Position numbers and translations under genes: made by a program. From NCBI GenBank assembly GCA_021813125.1, contig JAKALT010000001.1, positions 23 through 64,022 on the forward strand: DNA of 64,000 bases, written 5' to 3'. Source of the stretch: a bacterium. GTDB lineage: Bacteria > Patescibacteriota > Microgenomatia > Curtissbacterales > GWA2-41-24. The notes under the pieces are model-generated. The model was not told the origin of the DNA, made no database searches, and saw only the letters and a list, made by a program, of their open reading frames with translations. Positions 15,288 through 54,662 of the stretch are shown here, piece by piece (positions within the stretch are counted from its first letter, which is position 1; the number at the start of each line of letters is the position of its first letter).

Positions 15288-15296
15288 ATAGTTTCT

Positions 15297-15839: not shown

Positions 15840-15841
15840 AT

Positions 15842-36584: not shown

Positions 36585-36946
36585 TGCTTCTGGGAAGGGA
36601 ATAAGCCAGATTCTGTTTTAACGATCATCTGTCTCAAAATGACGCTTTGCCATTTTACCCCGCTTTAGACGGGGTGCCCCTATTTTGAACCTTCCGGAAA
36701 CGTGGTCTAATGGTTCAGTTCTGGGTTGCAGCAGTCAGGATTGCCCGTTTCACACCTACTCGTCTCTGTTGCTCTCCCGAAAGGTTAATTCCTCTCAGGT
36801 CTTAAAAGCTGTGTGTAGGTAAAGCTTTTAAGAACTAGCGCTTACGCGTCGGAACTTACGTTCCGTGACTTGTTTCCTGCTGTCTGGACTTTCCTATACA
36901 CTCAGTTTTACGTGAATGCATCAATCGTCTTCTTCCCAGAAGCGAA
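36583..36946 (-). ncRNA. rnpB: RNase P RNA, bacterial type A
   Basis: On the minus strand: AGGAAAGTCCAGACAGC (P4 5' strand), GCAACAGAGA, GGTGTGAAACGGG, CAAAATAGGGG, and 3' ACAGAATCTGGCTTAT matching E. coli ACAGAACCCGGCUUAUC. P1 helix CTTCTGGGAAG/CTTCCCAGAAG closes the molecule at about 360 nt. Confidence 0.85.
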
Positions 36947-36984
36947 GCAAATTTTACCAAAAACTGGTGCAATTCTCAAGTTGA

Positions 36985-37212
36985 TTGACTATTCTTGAGA
37001 AAAGTGCCGATAATATATTGATGGCCAAAAAACCAAAAGCTTTATTTAAGAAAAATATTCTTTCAAGATCGCTTATTGGCTTAACACTCCTTTTTGTCCT
37101 AGTTGCCGCTTTTGAAGCAGTGACCCAAAACGACTTTACAACTCTCGCCCCCACCCAACTATTTGTTGTGGCAGGCGTATTTGGGATTCTCGGCCTTTAT
37201 ACAAAAGAATAA
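36985..37212 (+). CDS. Hypothetical small membrane protein (2 TM), weak call
   Basis: ORF only. Hydrophobic stretches. Confidence 0.25.
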   Translation: MTILEKSADNILMAKKPKALFKKNILSRSLIGLTLLFVLVAAFEAVTQNDFTTLAPTQLFVVAGVFGILGLYTKE

Positions 37213-37278
37213 AACTTCAAAGGACTTGGAATGTCCAGCTTTCTAAGGTAAACTTACACTACAAAGCTGCTCAATCGT

Positions 37279-37968
37279 ATGCCAAAAAAAATACCTATCG
37301 CTGTTTTAATTGGCGGAGGTTCAAAGTTACCAGCCCTAATTGAAGCAGCAAAGAAAAAGGCAAGTAACTTTGAAATAAAACTCGTAGTAAGCCACAAATC
37401 ATCTTCCCATGGTATAAGTTTAGCCTTAAAAAACAATATCCCCGCTGTATTTTTTAATCTACCGGATTACCGAAATAGATTATTTGGCGGCAATATTAAA
37501 GCCCGTTCCGATTATATGCAAAAACTTGGTTGGTTTATTAGCCAGAGGGCATATAGTCCCAAACTTTTGGTTTTCGCGGGATGGGACTTGGTGATGGATA
37601 AAAATTTTTTCGATTTTTTTAAATGTAATTTTGGAAACGGTTATTCAGCTATAAACCTGCACCCCGCAATTTTGCCCGAAGAAAATGAAAAAGAAATAAA
37701 GATGCCGGATGGGCTAACTACTCCTGTTATAAAGGGTGAACAAACAGAAGTATTGCAGCAGGTTCTTGACAATAAATTAACATATTTTGGTCCTACAGTA
37801 CATTTTATGGTAGCAAGCGGGTATGACACCGGCAAAATAATTGAAAGGGAATTTATTAAAGTTGGCTCTGCAAAAAGTATAAGTGATCTGCGCAAAAAGT
37901 TATTACCGGTTGAGGATAAAATTATAGTCTCTTCGATAAATACTGTGATCGAAAAATATTTATCATGA
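37279..37968 (+). CDS. purN: Phosphoribosylglycinamide formyltransferase (folate-dependent GAR transformylase) with an internal insertion
   Basis: IAVLIGGGSKLPALIEA, INLHPAILP (compare NIHPSLLP), GPTVHFMVASGYDTGKII (compare HGTSVHFVTDELDGGPVI). Confidence 0.8.
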   Translation: MPKKIPIAVLIGGGSKLPALIEAAKKKASNFEIKLVVSHKSSSHGISLALKNNIPAVFFNLPDYRNRLFGGNIKARSDYMQKLGWFISQRAYSPKLLVFAGWDLVMDKNFFDFFKCNFGNGYSAINLHPAILPEENEKEIKMPDGLTTPVIKGEQTEVLQQVLDNKLTYFGPTVHFMVASGYDTGKIIEREFIKVGSAKSISDLRKKLLPVEDKIIVSSINTVIEKYLS

Positions 37969-39254
37969 AAAAAAGTACCGTTTTAGTAATCGACGGTGGA
38001 GGCAGAGGGTCTGTCCTTACGGCAAAATACCTGGAAAGTAAACTTGTCGGTAAAGTTTTGGTTACACCCGGCAACGATTTAATGCTAATTAACAAAAACG
38101 TTGAGATATTCCCCAATATTAAAACCACAGACACCAAAAATATTCTTAATGTTTGCATAAAAAACAAAGTGGACCTAGTCGATGTTGCCCAAGATGATGC
38201 CGTTGCTGTAGGTATTACTGATATTCTCCTAAAAAACAAATTTAAAGTTTTTGGACCTACAAAAGCGGCTGGCCAGATAGAATGGGATAAGTCATGGTCT
38301 AAAAATTTTATGAATAAAAATAGAATTCCAACAGCTAAATTTAAAGTTTTTAAAACTCAAAAAGCAGGGATTTTATTTATTAAAAAACATAAAGATTCTA
38401 AATGGTATGTTAAAGCCTCCGGTCTTGCTGCGGGAAAGGGCGTGATATTTGCTGCAAACAACAAGGAAGCAATACACGCCATAAATCAAATGAAAAATTT
38501 TGGTAAATCAGGCGAAACTTTTGTTATTGAGGAATCACTGGAAGGTGAAGAATTTTCATCATTCGCTGCAGTCAATGGCAAAAAATTTATTATTTTAGGC
38601 CATGCTCAAGACCACAAAACTGTTTATGACGGAAATATCGGTCCAAATACAGGCGGTATGGGGTGCTCCTCACCTCCGCTTGCAATAACCCCATACATTG
38701 AAAAGCAAGTAAATGTTATTTTTAAGAAAACTACTGCTGGTTTGGTAAAACTTAAAAGACCTTACCTGGGCATATTATATTTAGGTGGCATAATTGATTC
38801 AAAAGGCAAAGTTAAAGTTATCGAATTCAATGCAAGATGGGGAGACCCGGAAGCTCAAGTAATTTTACCTTCAATAAAAAATGATTATTATAGCTTGGTT
38901 GCCGAAATATTAAACGGTAATAAGCCAAGGATAATTAAGGATAAAAAATATAGAATTGTTGTTGCGGCAACAGCAAAAGGGTATCCAGTAGATTACAGTA
39001 AAATCGTTGGCAAGGAAATTAAAGGTATGGATAAACTAGTAAAGTCCAAGGTGAAAATTTATGGTGCCGGAGTAAAACTTCAAGGAAATAAGTATTTAGT
39101 TTCGGGCGGAAGATTATTTTATGTGCTTAGTGAGGGTAAGAATGTTGCAGAAGCTCGTAAAATAGCCTATAATGCTCTATCTCTAGTCTCTATAGCCGGT
39201 GGAAATCTTCATTATCGCCGCGATATCGGTTACAGAGACCTTAAAAGAAATTAA
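37965..39254 (+). CDS. purD: Phosphoribosylamine-glycine ligase
   Basis: 429 aa ATP-grasp. N-terminal VLVIDGGGRGSVL, conserved PurD layout. Confidence 0.9.
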   Translation: MKKSTVLVIDGGGRGSVLTAKYLESKLVGKVLVTPGNDLMLINKNVEIFPNIKTTDTKNILNVCIKNKVDLVDVAQDDAVAVGITDILLKNKFKVFGPTKAAGQIEWDKSWSKNFMNKNRIPTAKFKVFKTQKAGILFIKKHKDSKWYVKASGLAAGKGVIFAANNKEAIHAINQMKNFGKSGETFVIEESLEGEEFSSFAAVNGKKFIILGHAQDHKTVYDGNIGPNTGGMGCSSPPLAITPYIEKQVNVIFKKTTAGLVKLKRPYLGILYLGGIIDSKGKVKVIEFNARWGDPEAQVILPSIKNDYYSLVAEILNGNKPRIIKDKKYRIVVAATAKGYPVDYSKIVGKEIKGMDKLVKSKVKIYGAGVKLQGNKYLVSGGRLFYVLSEGKNVAEARKIAYNALSLVSIAGGNLHYRRDIGYRDLKRN

Positions 39255-42088
39255 TGATTTTTGAAGTTAGGGTTAAGTCAAATGACGAAAAAGATCCAAA
39301 AGGCGCGGCTCTTCTTGCGGAAATTAATAAAACTTTAAATATAAGCTCAATCAAAAAAATTCAAACTGCTAAAGTTTACCGCCTCGAAAATATTAAAAAA
39401 GAAAAAGTCAAAATATTTGCCCAAACTGCTCTTTTTGAAAAAATAGACCAAATCGCAACTTATAACAAATCCATTTTTCCAAAATCGGCAACAGTTATTG
39501 AAGTCGGATACAAACCCGGCGTTATGAATCCTGAGGTGGCATCGATCTTAAAAGTAGCAAGCGATCTTAAAATCAAAATAGACGCTTGCGATTCGTCCTG
39601 GGAATACGCCTTTTTTGGTCCGGTTACAAAATCTCAAATCGACCAAATAGTTAAAAGATTATTAGTTAATGACACAGTTGAAAACTTAATCAAAAAACCC
39701 CCAAAAACCCTAAAAATTTCCGGTGTTGCCCAAAAAGTACAAACCGTTCCAATTACAAAACTAAATGATCAAGAACTTATGGATTTAACCCACGATAAAC
39801 TATTTTTAAATCTTGAAGAAATGAAAGTAATTCAAAATTATTTTACAAAAATTAAAAGAGATCCGACAGATTGCGAACTGGAAACGATTGCACTTACTTG
39901 GTCTGAGCATTGCGGTCATAAAACTTTTCGTGCAAAAGTTACAATTGACGGCAAAACTAAAGCCCCGTTTATTTCCCGTATCAAAAAAACTGCTAAAAAT
40001 AATCAAAAATTAATTATTAGCGCTTTTGATGATAATTCAGGTGTTATTGATTTTTACGATGGGTTTGCAATAAATGGCAAGGTAGAAACACACAATTCGC
40101 CATCCGCTATTGAACCTTATGGTGGCGCAATGACCGGCTCCGGAGGTGTTTTCCGGGATATTTTAGGAACTGGACAGGGTGCAAAGCCGGTTATATCTAC
40201 CGACATTTTTTGTTTTGCACCACCGGACCTTAACGTAAAAGAACTACCCCCCGGATGCCTTCCACCAGAATATTTGCTTAGAAAAGTTGTATTCGGTGTT
40301 CGAGATTACGGTAATAGAGTTGGAATTCCTACAAATAACGGATCTGTCCATTTTCATCCTGATTTCCGCGCCAAACCGACTGTTGCCGTCGGTTCGTTCG
40401 GTCTAATCGAAAAATCAAGGGCAAAAAAGGGTAAACCAAAATCAGGAAATTTGATCATAACGCTCGGAGGGGCTACTGGGAGGGACGGTATTCACGGGGC
40501 TACATTTGCTTCCGGCGAAATGACCGACAGAACTATTAACGTTTCCGGTTCCGCTGTTCAGATTGGAAATGCCATAGAAGAAAAAAGATTAATTGATGCG
40601 ATCTTAAAGCTGAAAGAAGATAATTTGATTTCTGCTATTACAGATTGCGGTGCCGGTGGTTATGCATCGGCAATAGGCGAAATCGCCAAAGAAACCGGTG
40701 CAGAGGTTTATCTTGATAAAGTTCCGCTTAAGTACGCAAACCTTGCTCCCTGGGAAATTTTTCTCTCGGAATCTCAAGAACGAATGGTAATTGCCATAAG
40801 CCCTAAAAATCTCAAAAAAGTTCAAAATATTTGCGAAATTTACAATGTACCAAACAATGTAATTGGAAAATTCACCTCCGATAAAAAACTTAAAATCTAC
40901 TATCACAAAGAAATTGTCTGCAATCTTTCTATGGCTTTTTTACATAACGGCCTTCCCCAAAGGCATATGGTTGGAATATCAAAGATCAGAAGTCAGAGAT
41001 CAAAGAGCGGACAGTCATCAAAACCTAACAATATTAAAATTGAAAAAGTATGGCAAAAAGTAATGGCTCACGGCAATGTTTGCTCAAAAGAGCCAATTGT
41101 GCGGATGTACGACCATAATGTCCAGGGAACAGCAGCGATGCATCCGTTTTCCGGTCAAAACTTTGACGGCCCTAATGATGGCGCAATAGTAATGCCGATT
41201 TTGGGAAAACCTTACGGATTAGTTGTAACACACGGCCTAAATCCACAACTTAATAAAATCGACCCATATTGGGGAAGTATCTGGGCAATAACGGAAGCGG
41301 TCGCAAATTTTGTTTCCGTGGGTGGCAATTTAAAAGATGCTGCTCTGGTAGATAATTTCATATGGCCTTTTCCGGACGAAGAATCATTAGCAGATTTAGA
41401 TAAATCAGTCGACGCTTGTTGTAATATGGCAAATCTTTTAAACATGCCATTTATATCAGGTAAAGATTCGCTCTCCTCAACTTACAGATATCCAAACGGT
41501 CAAATTCTGAAAATTCCACCTGTGTTGTTAATTTCAGTTTTCGGAAAAATTCCCGACGTTAAAAAAACTACAAGTTCCGATTTCAAAAAAGCCGGCTCGA
41601 CAATAGTTTTGGTCGGCAAACCGGATTTTGAAAATCTCGGCGGTTCAACATATCTCGACATCATAAAATCAAGGTCTGGAGATATTCCAAAACCGGATCT
41701 CCAATCTATCACAAAAGTTTTTTCATCAATAACATCAGGTATCAAATCATCCCAGATTATTTCCTGTCATGATATTTCGGAAGGCGGTACGGCAACTGCC
41801 CTTGCAGAAATGTGTATCGGTGGAGACGTAGGCGCCGAAATCGATATTGAACAATTAAAATCGAAAGACGACCAAATATTATTTTCCGAAACGCCGGGAA
41901 CGTTTTTAGTTGAGGTTAATAACGAAAATATTGCCAAGAAACTTTTTGCTAAAGTTCCATATTATATTTTAGGAAAAACAACAAAATCTGACACAATAAT
42001 TGTCAAAGGTTCTAAAACAACAAAAGTCAAAGTAGATACTCTCAAAAAATCCTGGCAAAAACCTATGAGGGAGATTTTTAATGACTAA
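39254..42088 (+). CDS. purL: Phosphoribosylformylglycinamidine synthase subunit PurL fused to an N-terminal PurS-like tandem module
   Basis: 944 aa. First about 200 aa form two PurS-like beta-alpha-beta-beta units. PurL core motifs WSEHCGHKTF, AIEPYGGAMTGSGGVFRDI. Separate purQ follows. Confidence 0.9.
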   Translation: MIFEVRVKSNDEKDPKGAALLAEINKTLNISSIKKIQTAKVYRLENIKKEKVKIFAQTALFEKIDQIATYNKSIFPKSATVIEVGYKPGVMNPEVASILKVASDLKIKIDACDSSWEYAFFGPVTKSQIDQIVKRLLVNDTVENLIKKPPKTLKISGVAQKVQTVPITKLNDQELMDLTHDKLFLNLEEMKVIQNYFTKIKRDPTDCELETIALTWSEHCGHKTFRAKVTIDGKTKAPFISRIKKTAKNNQKLIISAFDDNSGVIDFYDGFAINGKVETHNSPSAIEPYGGAMTGSGGVFRDILGTGQGAKPVISTDIFCFAPPDLNVKELPPGCLPPEYLLRKVVFGVRDYGNRVGIPTNNGSVHFHPDFRAKPTVAVGSFGLIEKSRAKKGKPKSGNLIITLGGATGRDGIHGATFASGEMTDRTINVSGSAVQIGNAIEEKRLIDAILKLKEDNLISAITDCGAGGYASAIGEIAKETGAEVYLDKVPLKYANLAPWEIFLSESQERMVIAISPKNLKKVQNICEIYNVPNNVIGKFTSDKKLKIYYHKEIVCNLSMAFLHNGLPQRHMVGISKIRSQRSKSGQSSKPNNIKIEKVWQKVMAHGNVCSKEPIVRMYDHNVQGTAAMHPFSGQNFDGPNDGAIVMPILGKPYGLVVTHGLNPQLNKIDPYWGSIWAITEAVANFVSVGGNLKDAALVDNFIWPFPDEESLADLDKSVDACCNMANLLNMPFISGKDSLSSTYRYPNGQILKIPPVLLISVFGKIPDVKKTTSSDFKKAGSTIVLVGKPDFENLGGSTYLDIIKSRSGDIPKPDLQSITKVFSSITSGIKSSQIISCHDISEGGTATALAEMCIGGDVGAEIDIEQLKSKDDQILFSETPGTFLVEVNNENIAKKLFAKVPYYILGKTTKSDTIIVKGSKTTKVKVDTLKKSWQKPMREIFND

Positions 42089-42854
42089 ACCAAAAGTTTG
42101 TGTTTTAAGGTCGGACGGTGCTAATTGCGACGAGGAGCTTTTTTATGCATTCGAAAAATTCGGCGCATCACCTTCTATGGTTCACATCAACGAATTAAGG
42201 AATAAATCTAAAAAGCTCAAAAACTTTCAAATCCTTGCCCTCCCAGGAGGCTTTTCTTATGGGGACGATATTGCCTCCGGAAAAGTATTGGCAGTTGAAC
42301 TCATAAGCTTCTTAAAAGACGAAATCCAAACATTCGTTGACCGTAAAGGTTTGGTGCTTGGGATTTGCAACGGATTTCAAACATTGGTTCGCACAGGTCT
42401 TTTGCCGTTTGGTAATCTTGGCAAAATGGATGCAACCCTAACCCAAAATGACAGCGGCCATTTTGAATGCCGTTGGGTCAAAATTAAAGGCGAAAAAAGC
42501 AAATGCTTGTTTTTAAACCATAATGAACCAATCGATATCGCAGTCAATCACGGAGAAGGAAAATTTTACGCAGAACCATCTGTAATCAAAAAGATCGAGG
42601 ACCAAAAACTTGTCATTTTTCGATATATCGACCAAAACGGAAAGCCAACTCAAAAATATCCCGATAATCCAAACGGTTCAATAAATTCCATCGCAGGAAT
42701 CTGCGACCCGACTGGAAGAATTCTAGGTATGATGCCTCATCCGGAAAAATTTATAGAAATTACCCAACACCCGAATTGGCGCCGCCAAAAGTTTACAAAA
42801 CCTCATGGCGCATTTATTTTCGAAAATCTGATTTCGTATGCAAAAAAAAGTTGA
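42081..42854 (+). CDS. purQ: Phosphoribosylformylglycinamidine synthase glutaminase subunit
   Basis: 257 aa class I GATase. GICNGFQ, catalytic HPE. Confidence 0.9.
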   Translation: MTKPKVCVLRSDGANCDEELFYAFEKFGASPSMVHINELRNKSKKLKNFQILALPGGFSYGDDIASGKVLAVELISFLKDEIQTFVDRKGLVLGICNGFQTLVRTGLLPFGNLGKMDATLTQNDSGHFECRWVKIKGEKSKCLFLNHNEPIDIAVNHGEGKFYAEPSVIKKIEDQKLVIFRYIDQNGKPTQKYPDNPNGSINSIAGICDPTGRILGMMPHPEKFIEITQHPNWRRQKFTKPHGAFIFENLISYAKKS

Positions 42855-43731
42855 TAAAATAAAATCCCTAAAAACAACGCGCCAGATAGCAATGAAGGCG
42901 TTTTACGAAGCGTTAAACAAAGTTTTATCCAAAAATAAACCTATCGCAGAAACAGATTTAAAAAAAACGTGGCTTAAAGAACTAAGAAAATCTGGAGATA
43001 TTTTTAATAATGGTTGGTATGTCCCTCCACCTCACGGAATAACCATAATTTTTGCTCAGGATAATAAACCTCAAAGGACACAGTTTCGCAGCTTACGTTT
43101 TAAAGAAAATTTTCCCCAAAAAAATATATTCTTAAATAAAAAAAGTGGCATTATTATTGCGTATGCATCTCCGGTCAATAAGGAAACTGGCATTATTGGA
43201 GATTTCGGACTTACATTATATTTCGGAAAAAGGCCTGAATTGATAGAACACATTAAAAATATTTTAAATATCCAAAAAAAAGTTTTTAATCATGCAAAAA
43301 TTGGAATGTCTCTATCGGAGCTTTATAAATATGCAGTGACACTCTTCAAAAAAGATAATTTGTCAAACGATTGGTGGCTAAATATTACAGACCCATCCGG
43401 CAGAAATATGGGTCATTCTATTCCATCAACCGAAAAAGACTGGAGCGACAAAGAATACAAACTTCTAAGCACTGCAAATAATAATTGGGAGAAAGTTGCA
43501 AATATGATAAGCAAAAGAAGAATATTTTTTAGTCCCAAGGAAGAATTAAAAATAAAAAAAGGAATAGCTTTTTCTATAGAATGTAGATTAAAGAAAACTA
43601 ATAATCCGGCTTTTCCTGTAGTGTGGTTCCACACAGTGGCGATTTTTCAAAAAAACGGGAAAAAAGAATTCTTGACAAACTTTGATAAATTATTCAAACT
43701 TGCAGGAATGGAGTACGCACTTAATTATTAA
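42838..43731 (+). CDS. Hypothetical protein with creatinase/prolidase-like (M24 pita-bread) fold features, embedded in the pur operon
   Basis: 297 aa. Segments IIIAYASPVNKETGIIGDFGLTLYFG, GHSIP, GIAFSIECRL... are reminiscent of M24-fold enzymes. Overlaps purQ end by 17 nt and sits immediately upstream of purM. Confidence 0.5.
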   Translation: MQKKVDKIKSLKTTRQIAMKAFYEALNKVLSKNKPIAETDLKKTWLKELRKSGDIFNNGWYVPPPHGITIIFAQDNKPQRTQFRSLRFKENFPQKNIFLNKKSGIIIAYASPVNKETGIIGDFGLTLYFGKRPELIEHIKNILNIQKKVFNHAKIGMSLSELYKYAVTLFKKDNLSNDWWLNITDPSGRNMGHSIPSTEKDWSDKEYKLLSTANNNWEKVANMISKRRIFFSPKEELKIKKGIAFSIECRLKKTNNPAFPVVWFHTVAIFQKNGKKEFLTNFDKLFKLAGMEYALNY

Positions 43732-43734
43732 ACA

Positions 43735-44835
43735 ATGAAAAAAATAAGTTACGAAAAATCAGGAGTAGATTACAGAGCACTGGATCCGGCAAAAAAACTC
43801 GGACAAGAGGCAGGTCTTACAACCGCAAAAAATCTTAAAAAAGCAGGGTTTGTTGAGATAACTGACAGTCGGGGAGAGACTGCATATGTATGGGATCAAG
43901 GAAATATTTTGATGGCATCGGTCGTAGAGAGTTTAGGAACAAAAAATCTTGTTGCAGACGAAACGCGAAAAATAGCAGGCAAAACCTACTACGATGTCAT
44001 TGGACATGACGCAGTCGCAGCTATAATAAATGACTTGATTGCTGTTGGAGCAAAACCTCTTGAAACCCACGCCTTCTGGGCCGTAGGAGACGGAGCTTGG
44101 TTTAACGATCAAAAAAGGACTAAAGATTTAGTCAATGGTTGGAAAACCGCAACCGATTTATCAGAGGCATCATGGGGTGGAGGAGAATCTCCTTCTTTAA
44201 ATTCAATTGTTGACAAAAACTCAATTGTTCTCGGAGGAAGCGCAGTAGGTATCATCAAAAACAAAAAGCAATTAATCACGGATAAAAAGTTAAAGGTAGG
44301 CGACAGGATTATTCTTCTTAAGTCAAACGGCATCAACTGTAACGGCCTTTCACTTGCACGGGCAGTTGCTAAAAAATTGAAAAAAGGATACGGTGAAAAG
44401 CTATCCAATGGTCAACTTTATGGTGAAGCGATTCTTAGCAAAACCAATATATACGCGAAACTAATCCAAGATCTTTTGTCAGCTGGCATCGATATCCACT
44501 ACATTTCAAATATTACAGGTCATGGTCTTCGCAAAATTATGCGGGCTCGTGGCAACTTTACTTATGTAATAGAAAAATTATTTCCTCCACAGGAAGTCTT
44601 TCTATTTATCCAAAAACATGCTGGCCTATCTGACGACGAAATTTATCAAACACTAAACATGGGACAAGATTACGCAATCTTTGTAGATCCGAAAGATGTT
44701 AAAAAAGCACAGGTTGTTATAAAGAGAAATAAATTTGAATCAATAAACGCCGGTTATATTGAAGGTGGTCCACGCCAGGTTATTATCAAACCAAAAAACA
44801 TCAAATTTACATCAGAATCATTAGATCTAAGATGA
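43735..44835 (+). CDS. purM: Phosphoribosylformylglycinamidine cyclo-ligase (AIR synthetase)
   Basis: 366 aa. N-terminal YEKSGVDY, PurM-type AIRS N and C domains. Confidence 0.85.
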   Translation: MKKISYEKSGVDYRALDPAKKLGQEAGLTTAKNLKKAGFVEITDSRGETAYVWDQGNILMASVVESLGTKNLVADETRKIAGKTYYDVIGHDAVAAIINDLIAVGAKPLETHAFWAVGDGAWFNDQKRTKDLVNGWKTATDLSEASWGGGESPSLNSIVDKNSIVLGGSAVGIIKNKKQLITDKKLKVGDRIILLKSNGINCNGLSLARAVAKKLKKGYGEKLSNGQLYGEAILSKTNIYAKLIQDLLSAGIDIHYISNITGHGLRKIMRARGNFTYVIEKLFPPQEVFLFIQKHAGLSDDEIYQTLNMGQDYAIFVDPKDVKKAQVVIKRNKFESINAGYIEGGPRQVIIKPKNIKFTSESLDLR

Positions 44836-46771: not shown

Positions 46772-47785
46772 ATGGAGACCCGAAAAGTATATAAAATCGC
46801 AACTCTGGGCTCCCACTCCGCGCTCCAGATCTTAAAAGGCGCCAAAGACGAAGGCTTCAAAACAATCTGCGTAACAATTCCAGACAGGGTTTCCCTCTAC
46901 AGCCGCTTTTCTTTTATCGATAAAATCGTAGTAATTGAAAAATACACCGATTTCCCAAAAGTAGAAGGTCAACTCATAAAAGACAACGCCATTATCATTC
47001 CGCATGGTTCTTTCGTTGCATATTTGGGCGTTGAAAACAATAAAAAAATGAAGGTCCCCTATTACGGTAACAAAAAAGTTCTAGATTGGGAATCCGATCG
47101 CAAAATGCAAAGGGATTGGTTAATCCAATCCGGAATTCCGGTTCCAAGAAGGTTTAAAAAGGGTGAAAAAATCGACAGGCCCATTATCGTTAAATCTTAT
47201 GGCGCGGCCGGGGGCAACGGTTACTTTTTTGCCAAGAACCAGAAAGATTTTGACCGCAGAATAAAATCATTTAAACCAAAAGACTTCATTGTCCAGGAAT
47301 ACGTAATCGGTGTTCCGCTTTATATACATTATTTTTACTCACCTATTTCAAAAAAATTGGAAATTTTATCCATCGACAAACGTTATGAATCTAATGTCGA
47401 TTCTCTCGGCAGAATCCCTTCACAAAACCAGCAGGGTTTAGGAATAGAACCTTCGTTTGTTGTTGTTGGTAACAGCCCACTGGCACTTCGCGAATCACTG
47501 CTTGCGGAGGCTTTTGAAATGGGGGAAAGGGTTGTTGCCAAATCAAAAGAACTAATTTCCGGCGGCCTTTGGGGCCCATTTTGTTTGGAAACAATAATCA
47601 CCCCGGAGCAAAAATTTTCAATTATCGAGATTTCCTGCCGAATAGTAGCCGGAACGAACTTGTTTATTAACGGCTCGCCTTATGCCGCATTATATTGGGA
47701 CAAAGAAGTTTCCACCGGACGCAGAATTGCAATGGAAATTAAAGATGCAATCAAAAAAAACAAATTAGGAAAAATATTAAACTGA
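46772..47785 (+). CDS. purP: Archaeal-type 5-formaminoimidazole-4-carboxamide ribonucleotide (FAICAR) synthetase PurP, paralog 1 (ATP-grasp, formate-dependent)
   Basis: N-terminus KIATLGSHSALQILKGAKDEGFKT. Internal HYFYSP, KRYESNVDSLGRIP, ALRESLL..FEMG, GPFCLE. These match the archaeal PurP family layout (DUF1246/DUF1297), from recalled family knowledge. Confidence 0.8.
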   Translation: METRKVYKIATLGSHSALQILKGAKDEGFKTICVTIPDRVSLYSRFSFIDKIVVIEKYTDFPKVEGQLIKDNAIIIPHGSFVAYLGVENNKKMKVPYYGNKKVLDWESDRKMQRDWLIQSGIPVPRRFKKGEKIDRPIIVKSYGAAGGNGYFFAKNQKDFDRRIKSFKPKDFIVQEYVIGVPLYIHYFYSPISKKLEILSIDKRYESNVDSLGRIPSQNQQGLGIEPSFVVVGNSPLALRESLLAEAFEMGERVVAKSKELISGGLWGPFCLETIITPEQKFSIIEISCRIVAGTNLFINGSPYAALYWDKEVSTGRRIAMEIKDAIKKNKLGKILN

Positions 47786-49059
47786 TGAAAACAAAACTTA
47801 ACAATTGGAAAGGGGCGGCAGCAGTAATTGGTATCGACTGGGGCGATTCCGGAAAAGGCCGGCTTATAGACGACCTTTCCCAAAATGCAGATATAATAGC
47901 CCGCTTCAATGGTGGTTCAAACACCGGACACACAGTTGCAAACAAATTCGGAAAATTCGCAATGCACATTACACCTTCCGGAATTTTCAACCAAAAGGCG
48001 ACATGTCTTATTGGCCGCAATGTTGCGGTTAATCTGGAAGTTTTAATGCAAGAAATGGACGCAATGAAAAAAGCTGGAGTGAGCTTTAAAAATTTGATGA
48101 TAGACGAACAAGCACCGCTAACTATGCCTTGGCACATAATGCGCGATGGTTTAAGGGAAAAAATCCGCAAATCTAAAATCGGCACAACAGGAAATGGTGT
48201 CGGGCCAACATACGCCGATTACACCGAAAGGGTTGGCCTAAAAGTTATCGATTTAATATCAAATGATTTGAAAGAAAAAATTTACAATGAAGCCCAAATT
48301 CAAAACAAATTTTTTAATCTTAAAATTTCCCCCAACGATGTTTATTTAAAATTTTCAAAGTACGCAAAAGTTGTAAAACCATTTCTTGGGAAAACTATTC
48401 AAATCCTCAAACATAATCACCAAAAAGGTAAAAACATATTGTTTGAAGGGGCACAAGGTTACTTTTTGGATATCGACGCAGGTACTTACCCATTTGTCAC
48501 ATCGTCTAACCCGGGTGTAGTTGGCATTTGGCGCTCTTACGATTTTCACCCCCAAAACTTAGATCATGTAATCGGAATTACCAAAGCCTACACTACGCGT
48601 GTAGGATCCGGTCCTATGCCGACAAAAATGGATGAAGCAACCGCAAAACAAATTATTGAAAAAGGCCATGAAGTTGGAACGACAACCGGCAGAATCCGCT
48701 CTCCCGGTTGGCAGGACTTGGTTCTTCTAAAATACGCCAACGAAGCAAACCACCTGACATCTCTGGCAATAACAAAATTGGATGTTTTGAGTGGACAAAA
48801 AAAGATTAAACTTGGTGTTGGCTATAAATTAAACGGTAAAGTTACTGAATACGTTCCCCACAATGCAGACCACTTAGGTGAAGTCAGTCCGGTTTATGAA
48901 GATTTTGACGGATGGAGTGAGAACATTTCTCATGTTAGAGATTTTAAAAAACTTCCTAAGAATGCCAAAATTTACATAAATGCCATTGAGAAATTCACGA
49001 AAATTCCTGTTAAATTTATTTCAGTTGGTCCAAAAAGGGGAGAAGTAATTTATGTCTAA
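47785..49059 (+). CDS. purA: Adenylosuccinate synthetase
   Basis: 424 aa. GIDWGDSGKGRLID P-loop variant, GTTGNGVGP, conserved PurA layout. Confidence 0.92.
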   Translation: MKTKLNNWKGAAAVIGIDWGDSGKGRLIDDLSQNADIIARFNGGSNTGHTVANKFGKFAMHITPSGIFNQKATCLIGRNVAVNLEVLMQEMDAMKKAGVSFKNLMIDEQAPLTMPWHIMRDGLREKIRKSKIGTTGNGVGPTYADYTERVGLKVIDLISNDLKEKIYNEAQIQNKFFNLKISPNDVYLKFSKYAKVVKPFLGKTIQILKHNHQKGKNILFEGAQGYFLDIDAGTYPFVTSSNPGVVGIWRSYDFHPQNLDHVIGITKAYTTRVGSGPMPTKMDEATAKQIIEKGHEVGTTTGRIRSPGWQDLVLLKYANEANHLTSLAITKLDVLSGQKKIKLGVGYKLNGKVTEYVPHNADHLGEVSPVYEDFDGWSENISHVRDFKKLPKNAKIYINAIEKFTKIPVKFISVGPKRGEVIYV

Positions 49060-50146
49060 GGTTAATGAATACACAATAGCAATAGTTGGCTCTCACAGCG
49101 CTCTTGACATCTGCCGTGGAGCAAAGGATTTAGGCTTTAAAACTTTAGTTGTTGTTGAGAAAGGTAGGGACAAAACTTACGCTGAGCACTTTAAAACACA
49201 AGGGAAAGTAGGCTGTGTCGATGAAGTTTTGGAAGTTGAGAAATTTAAGGACATTTTAGATTCCAGAAACCAGAAAATCCTAAAAGAAAAAAATTCAATC
49301 TTTATTCCCCATCGCTCATTCGAGGTGTATCTCAACGACTACGACGCAATAGAAAAAGATTTCACTGTTCCTATGTTTGGCAACAAGTTTCTTTTAAGAA
49401 TTGAAGAACGCTACGTTAAACCAAACCAATACGATCTTTTATCTGAGGCAAAAATAAAATTCCCTAAAACATATAATAGTCCTAAAGAAATAGACCGGCT
49501 AGTTTTGGTAAAAGTTGCAGAGCGCGAAAGAAAATTCGAAAGGGCTTTTTTTCTGGCAAGCTCTCCTAAAGATTTTCAAGTTGCTTCGGAAATATTGATT
49601 TTAGAAGGCAAGATTACCAAAGAAGCCCTGGGGGTTGCGGTAATAGAGGAGTTTATTTTGGGAGTGCAAATAAATTTTAATTTCTTTTATTCACCAATTA
49701 CCAAACGTGTGGAGCTAGTGGGGACAGATACCAGAAGGCAGACCAACATCGACGGGCTTTTAAGGCTACCCGCTTTTTATCAAAACCAACTCCAGGAATC
49801 TATCCAAATAAAGTATGAGGAAGCAGGCCACATTGCAGTCACAACCCTGGAATCAACTCTTGAGCCGGCTTTTGAAATGGCAAACCGCTTCGTCGAAGCA
49901 TCCCAAAAACTGTACCCGCCGGGCATCATTGGGCCATTTGGCCTTCAGTCTGTTATAACAGCCGGCCCACCCAAAAAAGAAATTGTTGTTTTTGACGTTT
50001 CGCCGCGAATGCCCGGTTCCCCCGGAATTTTTGCAACCCCCTACAGCGGCTATTTATACGGGCAGTCTATGAGTATGGGCAAAAGGGTTGCAGTGGAAAT
50101 CGAAAAAGCAATCAACAACAACATGGTAAAACAAATCATAACATGA
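49052..50146 (+). CDS. purP: Archaeal-type FAICAR synthetase PurP, paralog 2
   Basis: N-terminus TIAIVGSHSALDICRGAKDLGFKT. FFYSP, TNIDGLLRLP, GPFGLQ. Collinear with paralog 1 but divergent. Confidence 0.75.
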   Translation: MSKVNEYTIAIVGSHSALDICRGAKDLGFKTLVVVEKGRDKTYAEHFKTQGKVGCVDEVLEVEKFKDILDSRNQKILKEKNSIFIPHRSFEVYLNDYDAIEKDFTVPMFGNKFLLRIEERYVKPNQYDLLSEAKIKFPKTYNSPKEIDRLVLVKVAERERKFERAFFLASSPKDFQVASEILILEGKITKEALGVAVIEEFILGVQINFNFFYSPITKRVELVGTDTRRQTNIDGLLRLPAFYQNQLQESIQIKYEEAGHIAVTTLESTLEPAFEMANRFVEASQKLYPPGIIGPFGLQSVITAGPPKKEIVVFDVSPRMPGSPGIFATPYSGYLYGQSMSMGKRVAVEIEKAINNNMVKQIIT

Positions 50147-51525
50147 AGACGGATTTTGAAAATTATCAATCCCCCTTTTCTTGGCGTTACGGCTCAGTTG
50201 AAATGCGCAAGCTTTTTTCCGAAGTTAATCGCCGAAAAACCTGGCGTAAAGTTTGGGTTGCACTAGCAAAAGCCCAAAGCAAATTCGGCCTTATTTCCAA
50301 AAAAGAATTGGAAGATATCATAAAACACCAAAACGATATTGATATAGAAAAAGCCCACCAAATCGAAAGTGAAATAAAACACGATTTGATGGCAGAGGTC
50401 AAAACTTATGCCTCTCAGTCCAAAATCGGGGGCGGCAAAATCCACCTAGGTGCCACTTCACAAGATATCGAGGATAACGCCGATGCCATAATTTTTAATT
50501 TGGCACTCGAACTTATCGAAAAAAACCTAAAAAGCCTTCTAAAAACCTGGTCAGTAAAAATCGACCAAAATAAAGATGTAGTTTGTATGGCCTATACCCA
50601 CTTACAACCGGCAGAACCAACCACACTCGGCTACCGATTTTCGCTTTACGCACAAGATCTGCTTATCGATTTAGAACTCTTAAACTACATCAAAACCCAG
50701 ATAAAAGGTAAGGGAACAAAAGGTGCAGTTGGAAACTATGCAAGCTACACGTCTCTTTTAGGCACCAAATCTGAACAGATGGAAGAAGAGGTTCTGAAAG
50801 ATCTAGGCATCAAGGCTTTTGATGTAACAGGGCAGGTTTACCCAAGAAAACTTGACTATTTAATTTTGTGTCTGCTTTCATCTATTGCCCAAAGCCTTTA
50901 CAAATTTGCTTTCGATTTAAGGATTTTGCAATCGGCACAGTTTGGGGAATTGGCAGAGCCGTTTGCCAAAAAACAGGTAGGTTCCTCGGCAATGCCTTTT
51001 AAGAGAAACCCTCAAAATTCTGAAAGAATATGTTCCCTTGCGCGTTATATTGTTTCGCTTTCTAGGCCTGCTTGGGATAATGCTGCAAATTCGCTTCTGG
51101 AAAGAACGTTAGATGATTCTGCAGCGAAAAGGGTAATAGTTCCGGACAGCTTTCTGGCAACTGATGAAATATTAAAACTTGCCTTATATATTGTTTCAGA
51201 CTTAGTAGTAAACAAACACAACATCGAGAAAAATCTGAATTCATTCGGGCCATTTTCTGCACTCGAATCTATTCTTTTAAAAAGCGTCAAAAACGGAGCA
51301 AATCGCCAGGAAATGCACGAGATCTTGCGCGAGCATTCGATGCGAGTTTACGAAGAAATGGCAAAAACAGGTGAAAATAGATTATTTAAAAACTTGGGAA
51401 ACGATAAAGCAATATTGGAATATTTAACAAAAGCAGAAATTGAAAATCTCACAAACTACAAAAAACATATAGGTCTCTCGGAAAAGAAATCAAAATTGAT
51501 GATTTCGAAAATAAAAAACATATAA
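50143..51525 (+). CDS. purB: Adenylosuccinate lyase
   Basis: 460 aa. WRYGSVEMRKLFSE N-terminus, fumarase/ASL family signature region GSSAMPFKRNP. Confidence 0.92.
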   Translation: MKTDFENYQSPFSWRYGSVEMRKLFSEVNRRKTWRKVWVALAKAQSKFGLISKKELEDIIKHQNDIDIEKAHQIESEIKHDLMAEVKTYASQSKIGGGKIHLGATSQDIEDNADAIIFNLALELIEKNLKSLLKTWSVKIDQNKDVVCMAYTHLQPAEPTTLGYRFSLYAQDLLIDLELLNYIKTQIKGKGTKGAVGNYASYTSLLGTKSEQMEEEVLKDLGIKAFDVTGQVYPRKLDYLILCLLSSIAQSLYKFAFDLRILQSAQFGELAEPFAKKQVGSSAMPFKRNPQNSERICSLARYIVSLSRPAWDNAANSLLERTLDDSAAKRVIVPDSFLATDEILKLALYIVSDLVVNKHNIEKNLNSFGPFSALESILLKSVKNGANRQEMHEILREHSMRVYEEMAKTGENRLFKNLGNDKAILEYLTKAEIENLTNYKKHIGLSEKKSKLMISKIKNI

Positions 51526-51632
51526 TAATGAAAAAATTAATCTTGCCACTTCATAAATTCACAAAAACAATATACAATAACGAAAATAATCCTAAAAACT
51601 TGCCCAAAAAACCTGCCTATATGAGGTAAAAA

Positions 51633-52166
51633 ATGGGAAAACAAAAAAAAGTCCATCCACAAGTAGGAATAATAATGGGCTCTGATTCGGATCTTGAAAT
51701 TATGTCCGAAGCAGCAAAAATATTAGATGAGCTCAGGGTTCCCTATGAGATATCGGTAATTTCTGCGCACAGAACGCCCTCACAAACTGTCGCTTATTCA
51801 AAATCCGCCCACAATCGAGGTCTTAAGGTGATTATAGCTGGCGCAGGAGGCGCTGCGGCCCTTCCTGGTGTTGTTGCTTCCCAAACTTTATTACCGGTGA
51901 TTGGGGTGCCAATTAAATCGAAATCAGTAGACGGCTTGGATGCGTTGCTTTCTATAAGCCAAATGCCGCCGGGAATTCCTGTAGCAACAGTCGGCATCGA
52001 CGGAGCAAAAAATGCAGGACTTTTGGCCGCACTAATAATTGGGCTTTCAAACATTGAAGTGAAAAAGAAATTAAACGATTACAAAAATGGTCTTAAAAAA
52101 CAAGTTCTTGTAAAAAACTCGAAACTGCAGAAACTTGGTTGGAGTAAATATTTAAATACAAAATAA
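51633..52166 (+). CDS. purE: PurE (N5-CAIR mutase or class II AIR carboxylase). No purK seen in window.
   Basis: VGIIMGSDSDLEIM...VIIAGAGGAAALPGVVA canonical PurE fold motifs. Confidence 0.9.
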   Translation: MGKQKKVHPQVGIIMGSDSDLEIMSEAAKILDELRVPYEISVISAHRTPSQTVAYSKSAHNRGLKVIIAGAGGAAALPGVVASQTLLPVIGVPIKSKSVDGLDALLSISQMPPGIPVATVGIDGAKNAGLLAALIIGLSNIEVKKKLNDYKNGLKKQVLVKNSKLQKLGWSKYLNTK

Positions 52167-53137
52167 TGATAGATAAAAAAATCATAGTAAAAAATATCCC
52201 CAATGCTATAAAGGCAGTTCCTGTTCGGAATTTGGGCAAAAGACAAAGTGGGAAAGTCCGTGATTGGTATAGTAGAAACAACTTAAGAATCCTCATTGCA
52301 ACAGACAGGATTTCCGCATTTGACAAAGTTTTAGGCTTGATCCCATTTAGGGGTGCAGTTTTAAATAAACTTTCGGAATTTTGGTTTAACGCGACTCGGG
52401 ATATTGTTTCTAACCACATGATTGGGGTTGTCGATCCAAACGTTATGCTTGTTTCGGAGGTTCAGGCACTGCCGATTGAGGTAGTTGTTAGGGGATACAT
52501 TACTGGAGTAACCAATACCTCACTTTGGAAACAGTATAACGAAGGCAATAGAATAATCTACGGTATAAAGTTTCCGGATGGTCTCAAAAAGAACCAAAAA
52601 CTCAAGGCCCCAGTTATTACCCCCACCACAAGAGGAACTGGTCCAGGGGGCCACGATGAACCTATCACAAAGCAAGAAATTATAAAAAAGAAATTGGTAC
52701 CCCCGGCTATTTACAAGCAAATTGAAAAAGTTGCCATTAAGCTTTTTGAGAGAGGAACTACAATAGCCAGCAAAGCCGGATTTATACTTGCCGACACAAA
52801 GTACGAATTTGGAGTTGATAAAAAGGGTAAATTAATTTTAATTGACGAAATACACACTCCGGACAGTAGCAGATATTGGCTTAAAAAAACATATCTGCAG
52901 CTTGTTTCAAAAGGACAGGAACCTGAAAATTATGACAAAGAGTTTATGAGACTTTGGTTTGCCAAAAGCGGGTATACAGGAAAAGGTAAAGCGCCAACTA
53001 TGCCGGATGATCTGGTTGCAAAAATTTCACAGAGATATATGGAGGTTTACGAAAAATTAACCGGAGAAAAATTTGAAGTCGACACCAAAAGACCTCAACT
53101 TGAAAGGATTATGGAAAGCCTCGAAAAATTGATATAA
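52166..53137 (+). CDS. purC: Phosphoribosylaminoimidazole-succinocarboxamide synthase (long form)
   Basis: 323 aa. ...RDWYSRNNLRILIATDRISAFD...VVVRGYITG... SAICAR synthetase motifs. Confidence 0.88.
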   Translation: MIDKKIIVKNIPNAIKAVPVRNLGKRQSGKVRDWYSRNNLRILIATDRISAFDKVLGLIPFRGAVLNKLSEFWFNATRDIVSNHMIGVVDPNVMLVSEVQALPIEVVVRGYITGVTNTSLWKQYNEGNRIIYGIKFPDGLKKNQKLKAPVITPTTRGTGPGGHDEPITKQEIIKKKLVPPAIYKQIEKVAIKLFERGTTIASKAGFILADTKYEFGVDKKGKLILIDEIHTPDSSRYWLKKTYLQLVSKGQEPENYDKEFMRLWFAKSGYTGKGKAPTMPDDLVAKISQRYMEVYEKLTGEKFEVDTKRPQLERIMESLEKLI

Positions 53138-53141
53138 GCAT

Positions 53142-54662
53142 ATGGTCGCAGTAATTAACTTTGGCGGCCAATACGCACATCTTATTGCAAGAAGAGTTAG
53201 AGAACTCGGAGTAAAAAGTGAACTTCTTGTCCCAGAAACCTCAGCCCAAAAAATAAAAGATCTATCACCAGACGCAATAATTTTTTCTGGTAGTCCCCAT
53301 TCGGTCTTTGACAAAAATGCCCCGCGAGTAGATAAAAATATTTACGATCTAAACATTCCAATTTTGGGTATCTGCTATGGACAGCAGCTAATTTCATATC
53401 AGCTAGATGGTTTGGTCACAACCCACGAATCTAAACAGTTTGGAAAAGAGATCTTAAAAACAGAAAACTCGGTACTTTTTGAAAATCTCTCAAAAAGAGA
53501 AACTGTCTGGTTTTCTCACGGTGACCAAGTAGACAAAATCCCTTCAGGATTTAATGTTATCGGTTCGACTAAAAACGCCAAAATTGCGGCGATTGAAAAT
53601 AAAACAAAAAAAATCTACGGAATTCAGTTTCATCCGGAAGTAACCCATACATTCTCAGGCCAAAAGATTATATCTAATTTTCTTTTCAAAATATCAAATT
53701 GTAAAAAGGATTGGGATTTAAAAAAGCAAAAAGACGAAATAGTAAAATCCCTTAAACAAAAAATCAAAAGCCAGAAAGTTATTATGGCCATTTCCGGTGG
53801 TGTCGACTCGCTTGTTGCAGCGACTCTCCTAAAGGAGGCGATTGGCAAAAACCTATATTTAACTTTTATAGACACCGGACTAATGCGAAAGGGCGAAGTC
53901 AGCGAGGTTGAAACAATAGTCAATAAGGTAGGTTTTACCAACTTCAGAATTTCCAAATCAGGCGCCAGGTTTTTATTTGCCCTCAAAGGGGTGACTGATC
54001 CCGAAGAAAAACGCAAAATTATTTCTAAGCATTATTTTGCAATCTTTGAAGAAGAAGCTCAAAAAATTAAAAATGTAACATTTTTAGGTCAAGGTACTAT
54101 TTATCCCGACCGGATTGAATCAGCCCAGCCGACTAAACATGCTGACAAGATCAAAAGCCACCACAATCTCACACTCCCAAAGGGCCTCAAACTTCAAATA
54201 ATCGAGCCCTTAGCTGAATTTTATAAAGACGAAGTCAGAAAAATAGGTACAATTTTAAAAATCAATCCCGAATTCCTTGCCCGCCATCCATTTCCCGGGC
54301 CGGGCCTTGCAATACGTATCCTGGGAGAAGTAACAGAAGAAAGATTATCCATTATTCGCGAGGTCGACTATATTTTTATTTCCGAGCTTAAATCATCCGG
54401 CTTGTATAATAAAGTGGGACAAGCACTAGCGGCACTTCTGCCCGTCAAATCTGTTGGCGTTATGGGTGACGCACGTACATATTCGTACATTATCAGTTTG
54501 CGTTCTGTTGATACCCAAGATTTTATGACTGCCGATTGGTCAAAAATTCCAAATGTTGTCCTCGAAAAAATCTCTTCTCGCATTGTCAACGAAGTTCGCG
54601 GAGTTAACCGCGTTCTTTACGACATTACCCAAAAACCTCCGGCAACCATTGAGTATGAGTAA
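53142..54662 (+). CDS. guaA: GMP synthase (glutamine-hydrolysing)
   Basis: 506 aa. N-terminal GATase (GICYGQQ), ATP-PPase SGGVDS motif, C-terminal dimerisation domain ending ...IEYE. Confidence 0.95.
   Translation: MVAVINFGGQYAHLIARRVRELGVKSELLVPETSAQKIKDLSPDAIIFSGSPHSVFDKNAPRVDKNIYDLNIPILGICYGQQLISYQLDGLVTTHESKQFGKEILKTENSVLFENLSKRETVWFSHGDQVDKIPSGFNVIGSTKNAKIAAIENKTKKIYGIQFHPEVTHTFSGQKIISNFLFKISNCKKDWDLKKQKDEIVKSLKQKIKSQKVIMAISGGVDSLVAATLLKEAIGKNLYLTFIDTGLMRKGEVSEVETIVNKVGFTNFRISKSGARFLFALKGVTDPEEKRKIISKHYFAIFEEEAQKIKNVTFLGQGTIYPDRIESAQPTKHADKIKSHHNLTLPKGLKLQIIEPLAEFYKDEVRKIGTILKINPEFLARHPFPGPGLAIRILGEVTEERLSIIREVDYIFISELKSSGLYNKVGQALAALLPVKSVGVMGDARTYSYIISLRSVDTQDFMTADWSKIPNVVLEKISSRIVNEVRGVNRVLYDITQKPPATIEYE

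Follow-up and report, generated by a model that had tools for sequence, protein, structure and literature searches.

In bacteria, the stretch of the purine pathway from 5-aminoimidazole-4-carboxamide ribonucleotide (AICAR) to inosine monophosphate (IMP) belongs to PurH, a folate-dependent enzyme. PurP, a protein of unrelated fold, stands at the same position in the pathway. The PurP of Methanocaldococcus jannaschii, MJ0136 (PDB 2r7k), is a formate- and ATP-dependent synthetase of the formylated intermediate 5-formaminoimidazole-4-carboxamide ribonucleotide (FAICAR); it acts alone, occurs as a single copy per genome and is accompanied by a separate PurO. Here we describe two PurP-family genes, PurP1 and PurP2, that lie together in a bacterial purine (pur) cluster on 64,000 nucleotides of Patescibacteriota DNA (assembly GCA_021813125.1, contig JAKALT010000001.1, positions 23 to 64,022). 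We refer to this whole 64-kb stretch as the window.

The PurP family is divided into clusters. The M. jannaschii enzyme, the one characterised, falls in cluster Ia (PurP I); PF1517 of Pyrococcus furiosus exemplifies cluster Ib (PurP II) and PF0421 cluster II (PurP III) (PMC3261824, PMC6486802). Clusters Ib and II co-occur in archaea, one member of each in 61 of 61 genomes (PMC6486802). What does the pair do? Assayed one at a time, the two P. furiosus proteins gave no FAICAR synthetase activity, although ATP and AICAR bind to PF1517 (PMC6486802; PMC3261824, citing Zhang 2008). Many organisms that carry the pair have no known IMP cyclohydrolase (PMC3261824, PMC6797443). Brown et al. 2011 speculated that one paralog could be the cyclohydrolase, or that Ib and II proteins form a hetero-hexamer (PMC3261824). 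The function of the pair and the identity of the IMP cyclohydrolase of Crenarchaeota and some Thermococcales have been a question since 2008-2011 (PMC3261824, PMC6797443).

A survey of 1,403 complete genomes stated that PurP is found only in archaea (PMC6486802). This statement does not hold for Patescibacteria. The genes in the window are new bacterial members of a known archaeal pair; our literature search found no paper reporting PurP in Patescibacteria. We propose, with a probability of about 0.6, that in this organism the pair handles the last steps from AICAR as an obligate, formate- and ATP-dependent two-subunit module.

PurP1 and PurP2 are Patescibacteria copies of the archaeal Ib/II pair

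The two genes are:

46772..47785, + strand: PurP1, ATP-grasp protein of PurP cluster Ib/PurP II type, 337 aa; DUF1246 and DUF1297 domains; in cluster I in the family tree
49052..50146, + strand: PurP2, PurP cluster II/PurP III type with a remodelled active site, 364 aa; DUF1246 and DUF1297 domains

The initial annotation of the window had put both open reading frames (ORFs) at exactly these positions and called them divergent PurP paralogs from a PurP-type N-terminal motif. The motif is present in both proteins, as KIATLGSHSALQILKGAKDEGFKT and TIAIVGSHSALDICRGAKDLGFKT, and 'divergent' is a fair word for an identity of 36%. Profile searches bear out the family with scores far above chance: DUF1246 (PF06849; E=1e-43 for PurP1, 4e-40 for PurP2) and DUF1297 (PF06973; E=9e-69 and 3e-62) together cover both proteins over their full length, and the top NCBIfam matches of both are the PRK13278 models for formate--phosphoribosylaminoimidazolecarboxamide ligase. 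Their relatives in the PDB are three PurP structures only. PurP1 best matches 2r84, which is P. furiosus PF1517 (E=7e-111, 374 bits); PurP2 best matches 2r7k, that is MJ0136 (E=7e-70), because no cluster II structure exists. Models for purK register a weak profile similarity from PurP1. PurT and PurK belong to the same ATP-grasp superfamily as PurP and likewise acylate an amine through an acyl-phosphate, but their substrates differ.

The active-site residues assign the two proteins to their classes (numbering is that of the M. jannaschii protein, and residue roles are from Brown 2011, PMC3261824). His27 and Arg314 contact the formyl group, and Ser94 and Ser266 the 5'-phosphate (PMC3261824); PurP1 and PurP2 both have all four. 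What distinguishes the clusters is residue 258, an Asn that contacts the AICAR carboxamide in cluster I and a His in cluster II, together with the loop at 161-165, which reads (K/R)GG(K/R)G in cluster I and is two residues longer and glycine-less in cluster II (PMC3261824). PurP1 shows Asn258 (its own Asn234), Glu310 and a Gly-rich loop, GAAGGNG. In PurP2 the 258 position is held by its His260, Arg replaces Gly93, Asp replaces Glu310, and the loop VAERERKFERAFF is two residues longer, lacks glycines and is of the ERAFF type (R-x-F/Y-ERAFF). The comparison thus leaves PurP1 canonical at its substrate contacts and PurP2 altered at 258, 93, 310 and the loop.

These differences hold across the family. 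We checked the class rule over 43 sequences from relatives' loci and 65 classified full-length family representatives. All members of the PurP1 class (21 locus sequences, 23 representatives) have Asn258, a GxxGGxG loop and Glu310; those of the PurP2 class (22 and 42) have His258, the longer ER(A/G)FF loop and Asp310, barring a few truncated or aberrant representatives. Three positions separate the classes at 100% versus 100% (G93R, N258H and E310D, from PurP1 to PurP2 class) and four do so nearly cleanly (Y208N, E230Q, E297Q, A317G), while His27, Lys156, Arg228, Glu265, Ser266 and Arg314 are conserved in both. Since the changes in PurP2 are invariant within its class and the phosphate and formyl residues are kept, its active site is a constrained, remodelled one and not that of a degenerate copy.

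Set beside the known proteins, the pair compares as follows. MJ0136 has the same two-domain ATP-grasp architecture as PurP1 and PurP2. With PurP1 it shares His27, Ser94, Asn258, Ser266, Arg314 and Glu310, though PurP1 has none of the basic residues of the P-loop; with PurP2 it shares His27, Ser266 and Arg314, and differs at Asn258, Gly93, Glu310 and the P-loop. MJ0136 works singly, whereas the window has a pair. PF1517 is the closest solved relative of PurP1, with the same class markers and a cluster II partner, but it comes from an archaeal hyperthermophile and has the P-loop KGGKG where PurP1 has AGGNG. PF0421 and other archaeal cluster II proteins share with PurP2 the His258, the longer glycine-less loop and a cluster Ib partner gene. 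PurP2 differs from them in its host, a bacterium of the candidate phyla radiation (CPR), and in being separated from its partner by purA; the class has no solved structure or known activity.

The window carries one cluster Ib and one cluster II member, linked to pur genes; the archaeal pair has a single protein of either class in each genome, for the most part near pur genes. The family call of the initial annotation stands, with the amendment that these are not two arbitrary paralogs but the defined Ib/II pair, with the full set of canonical FAICAR synthetase substrate contacts in PurP1 only.

Distribution and exchange of the pair

A word-indexed search returned 6,843 PurP2 homologs at E<=1e-10, and the PurP family comprises 563 representatives at 50% identity. 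The closest named relatives of PurP2 are annotated 'DUF1297 domain-containing protein' and come from Candidatus Curtissbacteria and Daviesbacteria; the titles of close relatives (Curtissbacteria, Daviesbacteria or Microgenomates) confirm the CPR-like host surmised from the sequence at first. We number the relatives' loci L001-L032. A scan of GTDB species representatives gave 24 of them, and L025 and L030-L032 are counted additionally. The hosts of the 24 include Microgenomates classes, other Patescibacteria, Peregrinibacteria, Gracilibacteria and Peribacteria, and among archaea Nanoarchaeota, Thermoplasmatota and Methanofastidiosia.

The PurP1-type and PurP2-type genes are adjacent or one to two genes apart in 22 of the 24 loci, and also in L025 and L030-L032. 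The pair is thus no oddity of this genome, as it had seemed; it is common in Patescibacteria, inside bacterial-type pur operons. The PurP1 and PurP2 subtrees are alike: in each, the Microgenomates form one clade, and Peregrinibacteria and Gracilibacteria form another, which joins sequences of DPANN and euryarchaeal origin. Distance matrices for the two proteins correlate at r=0.87, a value reached by 0 of 2000 Mantel permutations and to which shared genome history contributes. From linkage and parallel subtrees together we conclude that the pair moves as a unit, inherited and exchanged as such between archaea and CPR bacteria.

The initial annotation suggested horizontal acquisition from archaea. 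An archaeal link is borne out, since the clades of both paralogs have CPR sequences interspersed with those of archaea, and the few named representatives near the CPR clades are all archaeal (Nitrosocosmicus, Heimdallarchaeota, Methanocella, Aenigmarchaeota). What does not stand is a recent event in this genome: any transfer was old and involved the pair as a unit. The position of the CPR copies amid archaeal diversity would fit an old exchange between archaea and CPR bacteria, in a neighbour-joining tree whose leaves are mostly anonymous metagenome proteins and from which the direction of transfer is not readable.

Some contexts differ. In L018 and L020-L023 (Peregrinibacteria, Gracilibacteria, Peribacteria) the pair is surrounded by unrelated genes such as integrase, LysE, GlmU-like and GT2 genes, and no other de novo pur gene was detected within 10 kb, apart from a weak PurN-like formyltransferase match in L021-L023; purH is near the pair in L018, L020 and L021 and was not detected in L022 and L023. 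Korarchaeum has only the pair (PMC3261824). Such contexts suggest a role in AICAR salvage in some lineages. Five MAG records titled 'uncultured Gammaproteobacteria bacterium' (L002, L006, L008, L012, L019) hold CPR-type pur clusters with PurP2-type proteins 52-87% identical to that of the window; the title is probably a placeholder or an error.

Loss of purH and the AICAR end of the pathway

The immediate surroundings of the pair are:

47785..49059, + strand: purA, adenylosuccinate synthase (424 aa), between the PurP genes; NCBIfam PRK01117, 472 bits against a cutoff of 402; overlaps the PurP1 stop and the PurP2 start
47782..47788, no strand: PurP1/purA junction, the position of a full-length purH in L005 and L032 (tblastn and called genes); no purH remnant
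50143..51525, + strand: purB, adenylosuccinate lyase, which makes AICAR, the presumed substrate of the pair; TIGR00928, 396 bits against a cutoff of 326; start overlaps the PurP2 stop
51526..51632, no strand: purB-purE spacer of 107 bp, the position of purK in L003, L025, L030, L031 and L032; no purK remnant

PurP1, purA, PurP2 and purB share the + strand, each stop overlapping the next start, and are therefore translationally coupled. That the PurP genes flank purA, a feature picked out in the initial annotation, is exactly what is seen, but it is a secondary state. In relatives purH is full-length, with MGS and AICARFT_IMPCHas domains, and its place varies: the order is PurP1-purH-purA-PurP2 in the sister lineages L005 and L032, PurP1-purH-His_Phos-PurP2 in L025 and L031, and PurP1-PurP2-purH in L006, L007 and L019, and in L018, L020 and L021 purH lies a few kb upstream of the pair. 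A concatenated PurP1 and PurP2 tree, displayed without branch support, places the window with L001-L004 and L030 in a purH-less clade nested among purH carriers, and in all six members PurP1 abuts purA. Given the sister order and the nesting, the flanking of purA is what remained after purH was deleted.

Two more genes have gone. An in-cluster purF, often fused to purN, is present in L007, L009, L011-L013, L031 and L032, and purK stands between purB and purE in L003, L025, L030, L031 and L032. Within the clade purK is kept in L003 and L030 and gone from the window, L001, L002 and L004. Thus the place of purA is derived, and the clade deleted purH and the in-cluster purF and lost purK in part, including in the window. 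This is CPR pathway trimming without abandonment.

How complete is the loss? In agreement with the initial annotation, Pfam scans of large ORFs outside the ribosomal-protein block turned up no purF, purH, purO or purK in the 64 kb, and relatives' PurF, PurH and PurK used as tblastn queries gave no window match at E<=10 and no remnants in the spacers. Neither an MGS-like IMPCH nor a PurO Ntn-hydrolase Pfam domain, either of which would mark an IMP cyclohydrolase, was present in the scanned window ORFs, and two CPR PurH tblastn queries found no match there. Extension beyond the window reached only shorter assemblies, which hold no pur genes. Cross-checking PurP2 and PurH match lists recovered the known case of L005 and gave no PurH match on large contigs carrying close PurP2 relatives, 976-kb and 978-kb ones among them; this comparison, which would overlook the second kind of purH found in L006, L007 and L019, with about 40% identity to the query, is no more than suggestive of absence from the whole genome.

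The trimmed pathway is nevertheless under selection. Between the window and L001, which both lack purH and purK, the proteins are 75-94% identical and synonymous sites are saturated (proportion of synonymous differences, pS, 0.6-0.74). The ratio of nonsynonymous to synonymous substitution (dN/dS) is about 0.03 for PurP1 and about 0.02 for PurP2; in those other pur genes that allow an estimate it does not exceed about 0.1. Whichever two loci are compared, and whether or not they carry purH, PurP1 and PurP2 rank with the cluster's best-conserved genes. The loss of three pathway genes and an apparently frameshifted rarA next to the pair might suggest decay of the PurP genes or of the cluster as a whole. 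The reading frames are intact, however, and with dN/dS of about 0.1 or less over saturated synonymous sites and the PurP proteins among the best-conserved of the cluster, we reject decay as wholly improbable.

The upstream pur genes under selection lead as far as AICAR, and in the purH-less clade they would serve no purpose if nothing turned AICAR into IMP. The PurP pair is the only recognisable candidate for this in the cluster; no other cluster gene tracks the loss of purH among the compared loci. A clade in which purH was deleted from between the PurP genes and the pathway is still selected thus gives comparative support to the view that the pair alone is able to run the AICAR-to-IMP end.

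How might the pair do so? In the mechanism that we envisage, PurP1 and PurP2 would act jointly on the AICAR end, probably as a hetero-oligomer. PurP1, with the ATP-grasp and formyl-phosphate chemistry of the M. jannaschii enzyme, would formylate AICAR with formate and ATP. PurP2, which keeps the 5'-phosphate and formyl-group residues, would be its obligatory partner and possibly the site at which FAICAR is closed to IMP. The deletion of purH would then have left the pair as the sole recognisable AICAR-to-IMP route in an intact, coupled operon.

Several observations weigh against this proposal. For proteins of cluster Ib or cluster II no activity is on record (PMC3261824). Both window proteins miss the NCBIfam PRK13278.x equivalog cutoffs (409 against 580 bits for PurP1, 289 against 556 for PurP2). 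In the PurP1 phosphate loop (residues ~145-150, AGGNG) the glycines and the length are kept, but both basic residues of (K/R)GG(K/R)G are gone. Relatives that carry purH have AGGKG, and the last Lys is lost (AAGGKG to AAGGNG, ASGGDG or ASGGHG) in exactly the purH-less clade, which is unexpected if PurP1 there became the sole formylase. The heteromer is inferred from co-occurrence only, and no cluster Ib-II fusion protein appears among the listed homologs. A purH, purJ, purO or purF may lie elsewhere in the genome. Most CPR relatives keep purH beside the pair in the same operon (L005-L007, L018-L021, L025, L031, L032), and where both are present the pair is at least as conserved as purH: between L025 and L032 identity is 77% for PurP1, 64% for PurP2, 59% for purH, 60% for purB and 55% for purK. 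The pair is therefore no dispensable backup there; such conservation is not predicted by simple redundancy and leaves room for a different role. It follows too that PurP is not simply a replacement for PurH, as first suggested: purH is indeed absent from the window, but most CPR relatives hold both in one operon.

The coexistence of purH and the pair could be read as a sign that the pair makes FAICAR only, the cyclohydrolase domain of PurH being normally needed, and that ring closure in this clade falls to a purH, purJ or purO elsewhere, to an unrecognised enzyme or to non-enzymatic chemistry. MJ0136, the sole characterised member of the family, is just such a FAICAR synthetase with a separate PurO (PMC3261824), and our evidence on gene absence concerns the window. 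Yet in relatives purH sits in the cluster from which it is cleanly gone here, no PurH match turned up on near-genome-size contigs of close relatives, and this view does not explain the need for two co-evolving paralogs. We consider it rather unlikely.

A stronger form of our proposal would give the cyclohydrolase step to the pair itself. PurP1 would be the FAICAR synthetase and PurP2 a third type of IMP cyclohydrolase, or the Ib/II complex would be a folate-independent, bifunctional AICAR-to-IMP synthase. Two features make the idea attractive: the one substrate contact changed in PurP2 adjoins the carboxamide nitrogen that must attack the formyl carbon, and a different loop stands in for the phosphate loop. 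PurP2 keeps His27, Ser266 and Arg314, which bind FAICAR; the contact to the carboxamide, the nucleophile of ring closure, has changed from Asn to an invariant His; and the loop that is replaced is the Gly-rich one. The retention and selection of the whole upstream pathway in the purH-less clade, the failure of any alternative cluster gene to track purH loss, and the frequent lack of a known cyclohydrolase in archaea that carry the pair (PMC3261824, PMC6797443) point the same way. On the other side, PurP2 still keeps ATP-grasp elements that a cyclohydrolase does not need (Lys156; acidic or amide residues at 297 and 310), and in most CPR, as well as in Archaeoglobi and Methanosarcinales (PMC3261824), a PurH-type cyclohydrolase occurs beside the pair. 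We put forward this assignment tentatively, at less than even odds. If it is true, the purH-deleted Microgenomates clade is a natural knockout in which the pair suffices for both steps, and the same enzyme would complete purine synthesis in Crenarchaeota, Thaumarchaeota and Pyrococcus, where the pathway has a gap. The presumably mesophilic bacterial proteins should lend themselves more easily to complementation of an Escherichia coli purH mutant than the hyperthermophile proteins with their negative assays.

Might the pair not act on AICAR at all? It could have another function, for example the ligation of a related ribonucleotide, in a clade that is not a purine prototroph. The P. furiosus proteins gave no activity in the assays mentioned in PMC3261824, conservation of the pair is the same whether or not purH is present, some Peregrinibacteria and Gracilibacteria have the pair (and purH) with no other pur gene within 10 kb, and the window is missing three pathway genes. 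Other findings stand against this: both proteins retain the residues in contact with AICAR and the formyl group, the pair is translationally coupled between purM or purA and purB in many lineages, and the remaining pur genes are under strong purifying selection. Moreover, the three missing steps can all be bypassed, the purH step through PurP. Phosphoribosylamine (PRA) can form non-enzymatically from ribose-5-phosphate and ammonia. In addition, purK is dispensable at high CO2 (PMC3261824), and PF1517 binds AICAR and ATP (PMC6486802). A function unrelated to AICAR is thus improbable. The absence of purK and purF does not in itself require unknown genes, and purF may be encoded elsewhere.

The resemblance of substrates and intermediates (aminoimidazole ribonucleotide to AICAR, carboxyphosphate to formyl phosphate) led us to consider PurP2 as a substitute for PurK. 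We rejected this because purK coexists with the pair in relatives (L003, L025, L030, L031, L032). The two also occur together in Crenarchaeota (PMC3261824).

Other genes of the cluster

The remaining genes of the cluster and its neighbour of M24 type are:

37279..37968, + strand: divergent PurN-like formyltransferase, not fused to purF; Formyl_trans_N, 66 bits; TIGR00639, 76 bits, below the cutoff of 150
37965..39254, + strand: purD; TIGR00877, 362 bits against a cutoff of 288
39254..42088, + strand: purL with an N-terminal PurS-like segment, 944 aa; TIGR01736, 575 bits over residues 186-941
42081..42854, + strand: purQ; TIGR01737, 197 bits against a cutoff of 178
42838..43731, + strand: orphan pita-bread (M24-like) protein; Pfam M24, 27 bits, just above the cutoff
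43735..44835, + strand: purM, divergent; Pfam AIRS and AIRS_C; TIGR00878, 156 bits, below the cutoff of 236
51633..52166, + strand: purE; TIGR01162, 208 bits; 70s loop GGAAALPG
52166..53137, + strand: purC, SAICAR synthase; NF009251, 401 bits against a cutoff of 371
53142..54662, + strand: guaA, GMP synthase; Pfam GATase and GMP_synt_C

Profile matches thus agree with the gene content first read from the cluster (purN-like, purD, purS-purL, purQ, purM, purB, purE, purC and guaA), and a PurN-type formyltransferase, whose translation shows the N-x-H motif as 'NLHP', is indeed combined with PurP-type genes in one cluster. Residues 82-141 of PurL weakly match a 74-position FGAM (formylglycinamidine ribonucleotide) synthase model (24 bits, E=3e-5), which we read as PurS; purS is probably fused to purL and not a separate gene. 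The PurL ortholog of L030 has a faint PurS Pfam match.

The M24-like ORF between purQ and purM deserves attention, since a neighbouring unknown had been thought a possible bearer of a compensating role. It has no NCBIfam or PDB sequence match. Its family has 24 members including this one, the few named of which are CPR (Curtissbacteria, Patescibacteria), and the Microgenomates-type loci L011-L013 hold three further ones. The AlphaFold2 model (pLDDT 92.6) finds prolidase, methionine aminopeptidase (MetAP) and creatinase as best Foldseek matches, with probability 1.0, TM-scores of 0.55-0.6 for the predicted model and 10-15% identity. D122, H193, E248, H265 and four Arg are invariant; set against the M24 ligands D, D, H, E, E, mapping by eye found no conserved second Asp about 11 residues past D122. 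Could this protein supply the missing cyclohydrolase or amidotransferase step? Its gene is usually just upstream of purM, as in the pur clusters of the window, L001, L011-L013 and L025, and the confidently predicted hydrolase-type fold with invariant Asp, His, Glu and four Arg would suit an enzyme. But the gene is missing from the clusters of the purH-less L002, L003, L004 and L030, occurs together with purH and purK in L025 and with purF in L011-L013, and in L026 and L027 stands outside any pur cluster, beside dCMP deaminase and uridine kinase. The distribution of the gene neither follows the absence of purH nor suits a purH or purF substitute; we rejected this candidate as very improbable.

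Some minor features concern purE and gene order. The PurE 70s loop tracks purK: carriers of purK have GG(A/S)AHLPGM, and the window, L001, L002, L004 and L008 have GGAAALPG, with Ala for His. L008 shows no purK between purB and purE, and PurE of the methanogen-type archaeal locus L017, in which no purK was detected, also has Ala. The Ala may be an adaptation to working without PurK. Fusions of purF and purN (about 707-714 aa) occur in L031 (1-1952), L032 and probably L007 (27-1350), and L032 also has a purC-purM fusion of 686 aa (the spans listed with the fusions of L032 are 1-375 and 14921-16981). The His_Phos_1 gene between purH and the PurP2-type gene in L025 (3374-4015) and L031 (9547-10185) occupies the position that purA holds in L005, L032 and the window.

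Upstream of PurP1, the AAA+ ATPase gene rarA/mgsA (45131-46397, + strand) is split into overlapping ORFs, 45131-46219 and 46014-46397, and its MgsA_C domain is cut after about 40 residues; the L028 ortholog is a single gene of 419 aa. The split gene is either a frameshift pseudogene or an assembly error. As for regulatory RNA, a window-wide Rfam scan at the gathering threshold gave one tRNA only, and a permissive scan spanned 36400-37400. Bacterial RNase P RNA of class A is matched over its full length at 36585-36940 on the - strand (model positions 1-367, E=1e-21); with 72 bits against a Rfam gathering score of 100, the match escaped the default scan. It fills roughly half of some 700 bp of apparently non-coding DNA upstream of the purN-like gene. 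While guaA is present, the large window ORFs outside the ribosomal-protein block showed no guaB (IMP dehydrogenase). Downstream of guaA lie genes for a Ham1/RdgB ITPase and a HAD phosphatase.

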